Translations under genes and position numbers: made by a program | Part shown: positions 13,517 through 63,242 of the stretch, in pieces | Position numbering within the stretch: the first letter of the stretch is position 1 | How the letters are laid out: the number at the start of each line of letters is the position of its first letter | From: Gammaproteobacteria bacterium | GTDB taxonomy: Bacteria; Pseudomonadota; Gammaproteobacteria; Ga0077536 | Direction of reading: 5' to 3' | Length of the DNA stretch: 64,000 nucleotides | NCBI GenBank assembly: GCA_963662545.2 | Contig: CAXXLL010000002.1 | Coordinates: 1,184,001-1,248,000 of the forward strand | Notes under the pieces: model-generated | Told to the model about the DNA's origin: nothing | The model's database searches: none | The model's input: the letters and a program-made list of their open reading frames with translations, nothing else

Positions 13517-13861
13517 TCAACCGACGAGTACTTCGCGGTATTGATCTTCGTTGAAGCCGACCAGGAGCGTCTTCCCGACCTTTACAACAGGCGCGCGCAG
13601 GTTGCCGGTCGGGCCGAGCATGGCGTCGACCACCTCATCCGCCGGCGCGCCCTTGGTCTTGAAGGTCGAGACCTTCTTGCCTTTCGACACGACGACTTTG
13701 TTGGCGGCGGACGCCAGATCGCGTGCGTCGCTACGGCCGAGCTTACGCGATGCGAGCACCGTTTCTTTGGGCACCAGCCCGTTGGCATCCATGAACTTGG
13801 ATGCTCTGCCGCAGCTGGTTCAGCCCTTGCGGTAGTAATACCAATTGATCTGACGGCTCAT
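13517..13861 (-). CDS. ArsC/Spx-like thioredoxin-fold selenoprotein (U14, UxxC)
   Basis: MSRQINWYYYRKG-TGA(13820-13822)-TSCGRASKF joins in frame to the 91-aa ORF containing GNLRAP...LLVGFN; SECIS-like hairpin 13785-13804. Confidence 0.85.
13785..13804 (-). promoter_or_regulatory. Putative SECIS element of the ArsC-like selenoprotein
   Basis: GCAUCCA-AGUUCA-UGGAUGC perfect 7-bp stem; loop begins 22 nt after the UGA. Confidence 0.75.
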
Positions 13862-14242
13862 CGGACATGCCCTGAAGTCGATTGCGGACGCCGGTGGCCC
13901 GGCGCACCTGCAGTTTATCATTGGCGCCTGGACAAACGCGGTCTCGACCGCGATTAACGAGAAAAAAATGCGACTTCGAGCGCTTTCGTCAGGCGGAATT
14001 CGCCGAGCGGGCTCTGGGGGCTAAGCGGCGGTATCGTGGTTGAGGTGGGCCGTTCGTCCGTGGACCGCGTCCACACCCGGATTTGAGCTGGAAGCTAATG
14101 GCGACAGGTTTCTCGAATTCAATAATTCATTACATATTATGTATAACTATATAATATATATAAATATATATAGGGTACATAAAGTTGATTCTAGTTTGCG
14201 ACAAGCCGGATTGTCCGTGCGAACGGGTTCGAGCGTGATCCG

Positions 14243-14977
14243 ATGACCGCGCCGGTTCTATACGAATTTCCGCATTCCCACTTTTGTGAAGTCGCCCGCT
14301 GGGCACTGGAGTACAAGGGCATCGAATATCGGTCCGTCTGCCTCCTGCCCGGGTTTCACGTTCAAAAAATGAAACGCCTGGCAACCGATTCCAGCGTACC
14401 CGTGCTGGTCGACGGCGGAGACGTCATTCAGGGCTCAGCCCGTATCGTCGACTATCTCGAACAGGTTCATCCGGATCGGCCCCTGACCCCGGCCGATGCC
14501 GGCGCGGTCGAGGAACTCGAGCGCGAGATCGCCGAGACCATCGGCGTACCGCTCCGACGGCTTTGCTACTATCATTTATTGCCGCACGCGGACCTCGTGC
14601 GCTATTTCTTCATGCATCGCGCAGGCAGGCTTGCGAATCTCGCGTTCAGAATGACCTACGGTGTTCTACGGAAAAAGATAACCGAGATCTATGACTGCAC
14701 GGAGAGCGGCGCTGAATCGGCCAAGGTGGAACTGGCGCGCGCGATCGATGCCTTCGATCGGCGCCTGGCTGAACGACCTTTTCTTGTGGGCGATGGGTTT
14801 TCCAGAGTCGACCTGACGTTCGCATCGCTCCTCGTGTTCTTGGTGATGCCGCCCGAATATCCAGTCAATTGGCCGCGCGAACTGGCCGGGAACGAGCTTG
14901 CGCAATGGTTCGACACCTTCCGCGACTCCAGAAGCTGTCGGCAGGTCGAATTTCTTTACGCCAACTATCGGCGCTAG
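14243..14977 (+). CDS. Glutathione S-transferase family protein
   Basis: SHFCEVARWAL, VPVL, QGSARI and FLVGDGFSRVDL motifs. Confidence 0.9.
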   Translation: MTAPVLYEFPHSHFCEVARWALEYKGIEYRSVCLLPGFHVQKMKRLATDSSVPVLVDGGDVIQGSARIVDYLEQVHPDRPLTPADAGAVEELEREIAETIGVPLRRLCYYHLLPHADLVRYFFMHRAGRLANLAFRMTYGVLRKKITEIYDCTESGAESAKVELARAIDAFDRRLAERPFLVGDGFSRVDLTFASLLVFLVMPPEYPVNWPRELAGNELAQWFDTFRDSRSCRQVEFLYANYRR

Positions 14978-15011
14978 GAAAACAAGGGAAAGAAAAATTT
15001 GACCTTGTCGT

Positions 15012-59838: not shown

Positions 59839-59895
59839 ACCTGACGGCGACGGTCGCGGTACGCGGCGGCAGATTCACGCCGTGACAGTGGGCCT

Positions 59896-61326
59896 ATGAG
59901 CATGAACCGCACGAAAAACGAATTGCTGCGGGCGGTGCCTTCGATCGACGAACTGCTGCGCATCGAGCCCGGCGAAGCGCTGGCGGAACGCTACGGTCGC
60001 GAACTGACGACCAGCGTGCTGCGCGAGGTGGCCGATAACGTGCGTGCGGCGCTCGTCAAGCGCGGCGAAGCAGAGCTTGACGAGGCGGCACCGGAAGCGA
60101 TGGTCGAAGCCGCTGCCGACCGGATTGTCGTGCTACTCGAACCCCGTCTCAAACCGGTTTTCAACCTCACCGGCACGGTGCTGCATACCAATCTCGGCCG
60201 CGCGCCGCTGCCGGTCGAAGCGATCGCGGCGATGACGACAGTCGCGCGCGGCGGTAGCAACCTTGAATACGATCTCGACACTGGACGCCGCGGCGATCGC
60301 GACACGCACCTCGAAGACTGGATCTGCCGCCTGACGGGAGCCGAGGCGGCGACCGTGGTCAACAACAACGCGGCGGCTGTGTTGCTGCTGCTGAATACAC
60401 TCGCGCGCCGCAAAGAGGTGCCAGTGTCGCGCGGCGAACTGGTGGAGATCGGCGGCGCATTTCGGATCCCCGACGTCATGGCGCGCGCCGGTTCAAAATT
60501 GGTGGAAGTCGGCTCGACCAACCGCACCCACCTGGCCGATTACGACCACGCGCTGAATGATCGCACGGCACTGGTGATGAAAGTGCACACGAGCAACTAC
60601 GTCATCGAGGGATTCACTGCCGAGGTCACGGTGAAGGATCTGGCGGCTCGGGCGCATGCCCATGACATTCCCATGGCCGTCGATCTCGGCAGCGGCACTT
60701 TGGTTGACCTCACCCGCTACGGTCTGCCACGAGAGCCCACGGTAGTCGAGACCCTGGCCGACGGCGCCGATCTCGTGACCTTCAGCGGTGACAAGCTGTT
60801 GGGTGGACCGCAATCCGGCATCATCGCGGGGCGCCGTGACCTCGTTCGCCGCATCAAGCGGAACCCGATGAAGCGCGCACTGCGTGTCGACAAGTTGACC
60901 ATCGCGGCGCTGGCGGCGGTCTTGCGACTGTACGCAGATCCCGCGCGCTTAACCGAGCGCCTGCCGGCGCTGCGTTTGCTGACACGGACCGCCGACGAAA
61001 TCGAGACGCTTGCCCGGCATCTCGTGCCGGTCCTCCAAATCGCGGTTGGCGACAAAGCAAAGGTCAACGCCGTTCCCTGCAAGAGCCAGATCGGTAGTGG
61101 TGCCCTGCCGGTCGATCTCTTAGCGAGCTTTGCATTGCGGGTCGAACTGCCCGCCGCCCGCGGCCGCGCGATCGAACGCCTGGCACAAGCGTTTCGCCGC
61201 CTGCCCATACCCGTGATCGGCCGCATCGACGATGGCGCTTTCGTCATGGATCTCCGCTGTCTCGATGATGAGCGCCGCTTCATCGAGCAACTGCGCGACG
61301 TGAGCCACTCGAACCCGCTCGCATGA
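59896..61326 (+). CDS. selA: L-seryl-tRNA(Sec) selenium transferase
   Basis: [38 protein letters not shown] and [11 protein letters not shown] motifs. Confidence 0.97.
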
Positions 61327-63242
61327 TCATCACGACCGCTGGACACGTCGACCATGGCAAGACGCTGCTGGTCAAGGCGCTGACTGGCGTCGATACCGAT
61401 CGCCTCCCCGAAGAAAAGAAGCGCGGGTTGACGATCGAACTCGGCTTTGCCTATCGCGATCTCGGCGATGGCGAGACCACCGGCTTTATCGACGTGCCCG
61501 GCCACGAGCGGTTCATTCGTACCATGGTGGCGGGCGTTAGCGGGATCGACGTCGTGCTCTTCGTCATCGCGGCCGACGACGGTCCCATGCCGCAGACGGC
61601 CGAGCACCTGGCGATCCTCGATCTGCTGGATGTCCGCCGGGGTGTTGTCGCGCTAAGCAAGATCGATCGAGTGGATAGCGAACGCGTCGACGAGGTGTCT
61701 GATGCGATGCGCGAGATGATGGAGCCCACAGGACTTGCCGGGAGTCCCATCGTGCCGGTGTCTGCGATGAAGGGTACGGGCGTAGATGCATTGCGCGCGG
61801 CGATCCTCGATCTCAAAAAGGATCTACCGGCGCGTTCCCAGGACGGCAATTTTCGGCTGGCCATCGATCGCAGTTTCCTGCTCAAGGGCACGGGACGCGT
61901 AGTTACGGGCACGGTTTTTTCGGGCAAGCTCAGCGTGGGTGGATCGGTCCACCACGTACCGAGCGGCGGCGAGCTCAGGGTGCGCGCCATCCACGCGCAG
62001 AACAGTGATGCCGATGCGGCCCTCAACGGGCAGCGTTGTGCGCTCAACATCACGGGAGCCGGGTTGCGCGAGGCGGAGATCCATCGCGGCGACTGGATCG
62101 TGGCGGCGGGCGCCGCGTTCGCGACCAAACGTTTCGACGCGAACATCCACGTGCTCGAAAGTGAAGCGCGCGCGTTGCGCAATCGTACGCCCGTGCACGT
62201 TCACGTAGGCGCGACCGATACCATTGGCCGCGTCGTCACCTTGGACGGCAATGCCATACAAGCGGGCGGAGAAGGGCGGGTGCAGATCATGCTCGAGCGC
62301 GAGATCCACGCCGTGCGCGGCGATGCCGTTATTCTCCGCGACCAGTCCGCGCGCCGCACGATGGGCGGCGGCCGCGTCCTCGACCCGCTCCCGATCGTGC
62401 GGGGACGCACGCGCGCCGTGCGCATGGCCTATCTCGATGCGATGGCGTTGGAGAATGCCGGCGCTGCTGCCCGGCGCAGCCTCGATTGCCTGCCGGAAGG
62501 CATCGAACTCGAGCGGTTCGCGCATTCATGGAACCTGACGGCCGGGCAGGCGGGCGAACTCTTCGACGGGTTGCCGATGATGTCAATCAGGTCGTCCGCC
62601 GGCACCGTCGGCATACCGGCTGAGCGGTGGCAATCCTTGAAGTCCGGCGTGCTGGACGCGCTGCAAGCCATGCATGAGGAAGCGCCCGATCACAAGGGCG
62701 CGACCGAAGCCTCGCTCGCCCGGGCACTGCCAATGCCGCCTTCCGCGGACCTCTTGAACGCTGTCCTCGCCGAGTTGATCGAAGACCGCGCGATCGTGCG
62801 CGAAGCCGGCGCGTTCCGCCTGCCAGGCTATACGCCGACGCGCTCGCCGCAGGACGAAGCGCTGTGGCAACGGATTCATCCTCTGCTCGATCCATCTGAC
62901 CTGAAGGTGCCGGTGGTGCACGACATGCTGGATTCGCTGGGCATGAAGTTCGAAGACTTGCGGGACTTTCTCGACCGCTCCGCGCAGCAGGCTTACCTGG
63001 TCAAGGTGAACGCCAAGCGCTATTTTCTACCGGCGACGATGAAACGCCTGGTGGCGATCGTTCGTGATCTCGTGCAGGCTAATCCTGATGGCGTGTTCAG
63101 TGTTGCCGACTACCGCAACCTGTCGGGGATCGGGCGTAACGCCGTGGTCGATATCCTCGAATACTTCGATCGCATCGGGTACACGCGCCGGCACGGACCG
63201 GTGAGAAAAATACTCGATCCTTCGCGCGTCGACGGCGGTTGA
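61323..63242 (+). CDS. selB: Selenocysteine-specific elongation factor
   Basis: [34 protein letters not shown] and C-terminal winged helix [16 protein letters not shown] overlap with selA. Confidence 0.97.

Follow-up and report, generated by a model that had tools for sequence, protein, structure and literature searches.

Several selenoprotein families have been reported from the surface ocean. They include AhpD-like proteins with a CxxU motif, in which U is selenocysteine (Sec), arsenate reductases (UxxS/UxxC), glutathione peroxidases (GPx), PrdB (UxxC), peroxiredoxins (Prx), UGC-Prx-like proteins and UGSC proteins, according to excerpts of the Sargasso Sea (PMC1088965) and Global Ocean Sampling (GOS; PMC2398784) studies. 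An excerpt of another report sets selenoprotein-rich bacteria apart as those with six or more such genes; 78.3% are anaerobes, and most belong to Deltaproteobacteria, Clostridia and Synergistetes (PMC5029168). Aerobes rarely keep selenoproteins, as stated in part of a 2026 review (PMC13188914). The DNA described here, a stretch of 64,000 nt with 59.3% G+C (G000:C2:1184001-1248000; hereafter the window), very probably contains four genuine Sec-encoding genes, related to ArsC/Spx, GPx, PrdB/GrdB and AhpD, together with part of the decoding machinery, selA and selB. All four families were described as selenoproteins between 2005 and 2008, in the same excerpts (PMC1088965, PMC2398784).

The original prediction, made from the letters of the window, had placed four in-frame TGAs at redox motifs, each followed by a 7-bp stem with its loop 17-24 nt downstream and G in the first two loop positions, and had named selA and selB as the decoding machinery. 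It had also expected Cys in homologs at the TGA-aligned column, and selC and selD elsewhere in the genome. All of these expectations were borne out. In a six-frame translation of the window in which TGA stood for U, the motifs KG-U-TSC, ASQ-U-G, VPM-U-PVC and TCFY-U were each located once, in frame, in the following predicted genes.

13517..13861, minus strand: ArsC/Spx-family selenoprotein gene, 114 aa; Sec codon TGA 13820-13822, residue 14; U-T-S-C within KG-U-TSC.
34512..34991, minus strand: glutathione peroxidase (GPx) selenoprotein gene, 159 aa; TGA 34884-34886, residue 36; NLASQ-U-GMT.
35217..36098, plus strand: PrdB/GrdB-like selenoprotein gene, 293 aa; TGA 35697-35699, residue 161; VPM-U-PVC (UxxC).
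58747..59838, plus strand: AhpD-related selenoprotein gene, 363 aa; TGA 59464-59466, residue 240; C-F-Y-U-T (CxxU).

The sequence on both sides of each TGA has the character of coding DNA. With a dicodon model trained on the long open reading frames (ORFs) of the same genome, and in the frame of the gene, both flanks of all four TGAs scored between +0.23 and +0.81 bits per codon; selA and selB, taken for comparison, scored +0.35 to +0.37. At the same flanks the two shifted frames of the same strand were clearly negative; on the opposite strand two frames were negative and one was near zero (-0.04 to +0.05 in 7/8 flanks).

The family matches extend across the TGA in all four proteins, and alignments place the TGA at the position of a redox Cys in each case. 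The ArsC-like protein scored 110.2 bits against NF041106, 'ArsC family (seleno)protein' (cut-off 85), and 26.4 bits against PF03960. Forty relatives were searched with it, and all 16 matches hold one in-frame TGA; in the 14 aligned orthologs the column is TGA without exception, and U14 aligns with the first CxxC Cys of PDB 2m46 and of Spx 3l78. The AhpD-related protein carries the C-F-Y-U-T motif and reached 352 bits against NF041238, 'AhpD_rel_CFYUT' (cut-off 175). Its full-length matches in the 40 relatives, 21 in number, all have an in-frame TGA (19 have one and two have two), the column is TGA in 12/12 aligned orthologs, and U240 aligns with the second CxxC Cys of AhpD PDB 6k40. Orthologs share the TGA column down to about 40% identity.

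The GPx and PrdB-like families exist in both forms. The GPx protein matched PF00255 with 132 bits (cut-off 27) over profile positions 1-108 of 108, with scores below two NCBIfam equivalog cut-offs (159.9 vs 270 and 133.2 vs 207.3). It contains FPCNQFG and WNFTKFL, which we take to be the Gln and Trp/Asn motifs of the family. Its column in 14 aligned loci is TGA in six and TGC or TGT in eight. The PrdB-like protein matched PF07355 with 28.4 bits (cut-off 22). At the corresponding column (VPM-x-PVCHQ) Cys is found in 12 of 13 related loci; the remaining one, 90% identical, has TGA. The set is biased toward Cys forms by a search pattern that included that Cys.

Each TGA is followed within the coding region by a hairpin, as folded by RNAfold.

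13785..13804, minus strand: SECIS-like hairpin of the ArsC-like gene; stem GCAUCCA/UGGAUGC, 7 bp; loop AGUUCA, starting 22 nt after the UGA.
34852..34869, minus strand: SECIS-like hairpin of the GPx gene; stem GUACGCA/UGCGUAC, 7 bp; loop GGUC, starting 21 nt after the UGA.
35710..35728, plus strand: SECIS-like hairpin of the PrdB-like gene; stem AUCAGAC/GUCUGAU, 7 bp; loop CGUGA, starting 17 nt after the UGA.
59484..59502, plus strand: SECIS-like hairpin of the AhpD-related gene; stem GCUGCUC/GAGCGGC, 7 bp with one G-U; loop CGGGA, 24 nt after the UGA.

In all four hairpins position 1 or 2 of the loop is G. The bacterial selenocysteine insertion sequence (SECIS) is a stem-loop that follows the UGA and has G in its small apical loop, as given in excerpts of two studies (PMC1088965, PMC2398784). 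The window hairpins are predicted SECIS elements with the same feature: a stable stem-loop and a small G-containing loop directly 3' of the UGA. A hairpin of at least 7 bp, with at most one G-U pair and a loop no longer than 6 nt that has G in its first two positions and starts 15-26 nt downstream, follows 4/4 window TGAs. In the same genome, this kind of hairpin occurs after random in-frame coding positions in 851 of 52,280 cases (1.6%) and after Cys codons in 215 of 13,855 (1.55%). Four out of four is far beyond chance, also when the post hoc nature of the definition is allowed for.

Orthologs conserve the hairpins. In the GPx family the GGUC loop and 5/7 stem pairs are identical across all six TGA orthologs (71-99% protein identity), and the two outermost pairs have one exception each: L054 has an A-C mismatch and L057 a U-G wobble. 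The Cys-form GPx homologs (8/8) do not have the complementary 3' arm, in an alignment judged by eye. A consensus fold of 14 orthologs of the ArsC-like gene keeps six pairs; pair 21-36 is GC in five, AU in four and CG in two, with three non-standard or wobble cells. The consensus fold of 12 AhpD-related orthologs has double changes that preserve pairing at three of its six pairs. Such hairpins would be expected to bind SelB and direct Sec to the UGA.

The machinery for Sec decoding is encoded partly in the window and partly just beyond it.

59896-61326, plus strand: selA, L-seryl-tRNA(Sec) selenium transferase, 476 aa; PF03841 524.6 bits; TIGR00474 587.3 bits (cut-off 267.9).
61323-63242, plus strand: selB, Sec-specific elongation factor, 639 aa; TIGR00475 417.5 bits (cut-off 242.25).
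G000:C2:1267634-1267725, 19.6 kb past the window end: selC, tRNA-Sec; RF01852 62.2 bits (gathering threshold 47); called tRNA-SeC(tca) by ARAGORN.
C2:1272288-1273199, minus strand, about 24 kb past the window: selD; TIGR00476 279.9 bits (cut-off 125).

The AhpD-related gene ends 57 nt before selA, and the start of selB overlaps the stop of selA by 4 nt. SelB has the GTP_EFTU domain, the SelB beta-barrel and winged-helix domains 2 and 3 (PF09106, PF09107). A single tRNA with anticodon UCA passes the Rfam gathering threshold for tRNA-Sec. SelD is part of a 761-aa Ndh-SelD fusion, the N-terminal half of which matches TIGR03169, the 'N-terminal to SelD' oxidoreductase, with 482.9 bits (cut-off 310); against TIGR04369, 'fusion_not_SelD', the fused ORF scored 466 bits, under the cut-off of 700. 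The SelD part opens with C-G-G-C and is therefore a Cys form. Ndh-SelD fusions with a CxxC motif are known, from an excerpt of the GOS study (PMC2398784). With selA, selB, selC and selD all present, this genome has the bacterial Sec-decoding trait.

In the best-known terms, those of the E. coli fdhF/fdnG system, the likeness lies in the four machinery genes, in hairpins that start 10-17 nt after the UGA within the coding region, and in a small apical loop that contains G or GU. The GGUC loop of the GPx hairpin is presumably the same as the apical loop of fdhF. Unlike that system, the genome of the window has no detected Sec formate dehydrogenase, and Sec is found only in thiol, peroxide and organometal proteins; selD is fused to a CxxC NADH-dehydrogenase-like domain, and selC and selD lie apart from selAB.

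On this basis Sec incorporation would proceed as follows. SelD, fused to its NADH-dehydrogenase-like domain, would supply selenophosphate, and SelA would convert Ser-tRNA(Sec), on the tRNA encoded by selC, to Sec-tRNA(Sec). SelB-GTP would then bind both Sec-tRNA(Sec) and the hairpin 3' of the in-frame UGA, so that Sec would be inserted and termination avoided. All four products would be thiol or peroxide enzymes with Sec where the redox-active Cys otherwise stands: as the peroxidatic residue of GPx, at the second CxxC position of the AhpD-related protein (CxxU), at the first CxxC position of the ArsC/Spx-fold protein (UxxC), and at the first position of UxxC in the PrdB/GrdB-like protein. The identities of the genes, the TGA or Cys at the aligned column, the conserved hairpins and the four machinery genes are observed; Sec insertion itself, binding by SelB and these enzymatic roles are what we infer from the sequence.

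Some observations weigh against this interpretation. Among the public runs listed as containing 58700-61400 there is no RNA run. The definition of the hairpin was chosen only after the four cases were known. A search of the whole window at Rfam gathering thresholds gave 0 matches, so that no Rfam SECIS family was matched. Covariation is modest: at none of the GPx pairs do both bases change, and one pair is lost in some of the ArsC-like and AhpD-like orthologs. The PrdB-like protein lies below the equivalog cut-off for TIGR04483 PrdB (127.4 vs 300 bits), and because this score is so far under the cut-off the protein is better named PrdB-like than PrdB; its behavior would be that of a UxxC redox protein, and membership in proline reductase is not supported by the sequence comparison. 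It is also under the cut-offs of GrdB and 'various_sel_PB'; the TIGR01918 score was 41 bits (cut-off 65.45). PF09338, the PrdA/GrdE-type partner, gave no match in G000 and none in 14 control genomes, a search thus without a positive control.

The public gene calls stop at these TGAs, as they should if the codons were true stops and the loci were pseudogenes or genes for truncated products, followed by decaying remnants of the downstream frames. One AhpD_rel_CFYUT paralog, L032 (see below), has an extra TGA at a conserved Arg, an indication that nonsense mutations do occur in this family. However, the parts after the TGA have full coding scores and family-level similarity to the ends of the proteins, the TGA keeps its column in the distant orthologs noted above, the hairpins are conserved, and the decoding machinery is complete. 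Termination at these codons is accordingly considered very improbable. Nor is it easy to maintain that UGA is read as Cys or another standard residue, through a Cys-charged tRNA(Sec)-like tRNA or near-cognate read-through. Natural recoding of Sec sites occurs, both GPx and the PrdB-like protein commonly occur as Cys forms, and sequence does not distinguish the inserted residue. Yet selA and selD, which are required only for Sec synthesis, are intact and far over their cut-offs, the one tRNA with a UCA anticodon exceeds the gathering threshold for tRNA-Sec, and the hairpins are conserved at a SelB-type distance; decoding as a standard residue seems to us no more probable than termination.

Reassignment of TGA throughout the genome, for instance to Trp or Gly, and errors of assembly are the least credible explanations, with almost no probability left to them. 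TGA is the commonest stop, at the end of 1529 of 2926 long frames compared with 753 for TAG and 644 for TAA, and there is therefore no whole-genome reassignment. The ArsC-like gene (TGA 13517-13519) and selB both terminate at TGA, and the residues aligned to the in-frame TGAs are Cys, never Trp or Gly. As to assembly, the TGA recurs in other genomes and in contigs of three studies. Contigs from three runs, one from each of these studies, cover 58700-60369 with 0-1 differences, none at the TGA of the AhpD-related gene; only contigs were used in this check, and the source sample may be among the three runs. The many joints and variant letters that metagenome contigs show within selA belong to the selA genes of other organisms and were ignored.

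The Sec-encoding genes of the window appear to belong to a larger set. The 5.58-Mb, near-complete genome was scanned with the coding model, the hairpin test and flags for redox motifs, followed by Pfam and NCBIfam searches. At least 17 TGA-recoded genes were found, the four in the window and 13 elsewhere; this is a lower bound, since the filters were changed between versions, each of which lost true cases, and candidates were picked by eye. The count is 16 if a CFYUT paralog with a second TGA is broken. The matches outside the window that span a TGA are these.

AhpD/CMD-type proteins: four.
Further CFYUT paralogs: two.
BCP-like peroxiredoxins: two.
UxxC Prx-like proteins: two.
ResA-like WAxxUGC protein: one, 294.8 bits (cut-off 300).
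UGSC-family protein: one, 139.9 bits (cut-off 125).
MerB-like lyase: one, G000:C2:712207-712917, minus strand (L024:308-1018); PF03243 84.8 bits.

Three clusters are evident, one of three genes within 19 kb, the four of the window within 46 kb, and one of four genes within 29 kb. All of the Sec genes detected belong to thiol, peroxide or organometal families. Two scan candidates, L036 (YCGV-U-PLC) and L037, were dropped for want of a family match. Within the window the scan gave no fifth convincing TGA-recoded gene: the candidates at 12518-13198, 38505-39494 and 46890-47219 were rejected as shadow frames of longer opposite-strand genes, and that at 33425-33970 for its weak leader of only 17 codons. 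The stop of selB was likewise rejected as a recoded TGA; the next gene simply continues in the same frame.

A Sec formate dehydrogenase was not found among the 20 molybdopterin-enzyme matches of the genome, none of which has an internal stop or exceeds the TIGR01553 cut-off, and the long candidates of the scan included none with an FdhA-like context. One molybdopterin oxidoreductase is in the window itself (16017-18089, minus strand, 690 aa). Its frame is free of internal stops, it is not a Sec enzyme, and it scores under every NCBIfam equivalog cut-off, the best being Fdh-alpha with 244.6 bits against 666.25. The model used for tRNA 2-selenouridine synthase gave at best 21.1 bits (cut-off 219.75), and this enzyme was not found.

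In the MerB-like gene the in-frame TGA falls at residue 156 (EMA-U-NG), and a hairpin of 7 bp with the loop GGUC comes after it. The U aligns with a Cys of PDB 5c17 MerB2, and the TGA is kept in a genome of the same genus (90% identity). A Cys-form paralog is present at C3:343026-343586. The SaoL model scored 67.3 bits (cut-off 140), and the CU motif of SaoL is not present. The gene may be a MerB-type selenoprotein form other than that in the excerpted part of the 2026 review (PMC13188914).

Two members of the AhpD_rel_CFYUT family have a second TGA in different settings. L127 (G016:C100:3151-4233, minus strand), an ortholog in a same-family genome, has TGA at both positions of the CxxU motif; the resulting U-F-Y-U would give a possible diselenide motif. 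L032 (G000:C3:2095538-2096668, minus strand), a third paralog in the genome of the window, scores 340 bits, and its second in-frame TGA aligns with an Arg conserved in 5/5 other homologs. This TGA probably arose by nonsense mutation, which would make the gene a pseudogene; less probably, it marks a deliberate second recoding site.

Compared with the AhpD-like (CxxU), arsenate reductase 2 (UxxC), GPx and proline reductase PrdB (UxxC) families of the Sargasso Sea and GOS collections, the window proteins agree in their Pfam/COG domains and in their Sec motifs, so far as the excerpts go (PMC1088965, PMC2398784). Two of the four also pass the cut-offs of NCBIfam '(seleno)protein' models. What differs from those collections is that the genes and the machinery are found here in one near-complete genome, with one gene immediately before selA. 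The PrdB-like protein shares with PrdB/GrdB of Clostridia the UxxC Sec motif at the homologous position and a match to the Pfam GRDB model; in contrast to these it is under the equivalog cut-offs, has 293 aa with an acidic tail, and belongs to a host with aerobic oxidases. With at least 17 TGA-recoded genes against a threshold of six, the genome resembles the selenoprotein-rich bacteria of the excerpted report (PMC5029168). It differs from them in the label Gammaproteobacteria, which submitters gave to close relatives, in its haem-copper oxidases, and in that FdhA, Grd, Hdr and similar proteins are absent among the selenoproteins detected. All of the elements are of a known kind and no new mechanism is involved; the genomic setting is uncommon, not unprecedented.

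The placement of the AhpD-like gene directly before selAB, conserved in relatives, is the only point of some novelty. Of the 22 selA-bearing genomes in the set of relatives, eight have an AhpD-like gene, interrupted by an in-frame TGA, as the immediate upstream neighbor of selA; the relatives with this order are G001, G002, G005, G006, G020, G012 and G024. In a wider collection of genomes the CFYU motif was found upstream in only 3 of 41 selA loci, and the gene order is therefore lineage-restricted. No promoter-like or terminator-like site was found in the 57-nt gap between the two genes. From gene order one might speculate that the AhpD-related gene is a selenium-sensing leader for selA-selB, which we regard as unlikely. 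If it were, ribosomes would stop at the UGA at 59464 when selenium, or the capacity of Sec-tRNA(Sec) and SelB, is short; about 370 nt would then be left untranslated and the transcript exposed to polarity, and the output of selAB would be tied to success in decoding.

The lineage appears to have the Sec trait in common. Because selA was found in 21 of 24 genomes of the same family, and in none of 16 genomes of other families in the class, the trait looks family-wide, and the lineage may suit the question of why peroxide defence retains Sec in the presence of oxygen. The original prediction had called the organism an oxygenase-rich, apparently aerobic gammaproteobacterium. The window does encode two P450s, three luciferase-like monooxygenases, a flavin-containing monooxygenase (FMO)-like protein, TauD and a Rieske oxygenase, and the haem-copper oxidases of the genome, with two COX1 genes, agree with an aerobic life; the assignment to Gammaproteobacteria rests only on the submitters' labels of close relatives. 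The genome is thus a compact selenoprotein-rich example outside the usual anaerobic phyla, having at least 17 candidates and aerobic oxidases, with FdhA not found in the searches above.

It had further been predicted that standard annotation would show fragments of a hidden selenoproteome. Exact fragments of 239, 160, 122 and 91 aa are indeed in the public protein collection, and near-identical NCBI entries of truncated length bear the names 'alkylhydroperoxidase-related (seleno)protein', 'ArsC family (seleno)protein' and 'glycine/sarcosine/betaine reductase selenoprotein B family protein'. The word hidden holds for the gene calls and not for the families and motifs, which were published in 2005-2008 and for two of which NCBI has curated models. 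With the full-length proteins missing from public gene calls, antioxidant and metabolic inventories of the lineage are wrong at these loci.

The GPx and PrdB-like genes are divergently transcribed neighbors separated by 225 bp. In the same-genus genome G002 this pair is on the contig that carries the AhpD-selA order, about 11 kb away, compared with about 23 kb in the window. In G017 the GPx gene adjoins the ArsC-like gene. The tRNA-Sec gene sits 29 nt after the gene for a 1047-aa pump of the resistance-nodulation-division (RND) type (AcrB family), and an IS1595-type transposase gene is found about 750 nt beyond it (region G000:C2:1267634-1269340; L038:19634-19725, L039:483-1340). The window has transposase genes of its own, one IS200-like (48607-49512) and one DDE (18566-19912).

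The segment 58700-61400 is represented in public sequencing runs, 12 of which, from four studies, contain it almost in full, at a share of 0.96-1.00. Three more runs contain it at a share of 0.59-0.72, one of them from a fifth study. Runs labelled sponge metagenome contained 27-37% of the sampled words of this segment, and one of these runs, X16, gave short identical pieces.

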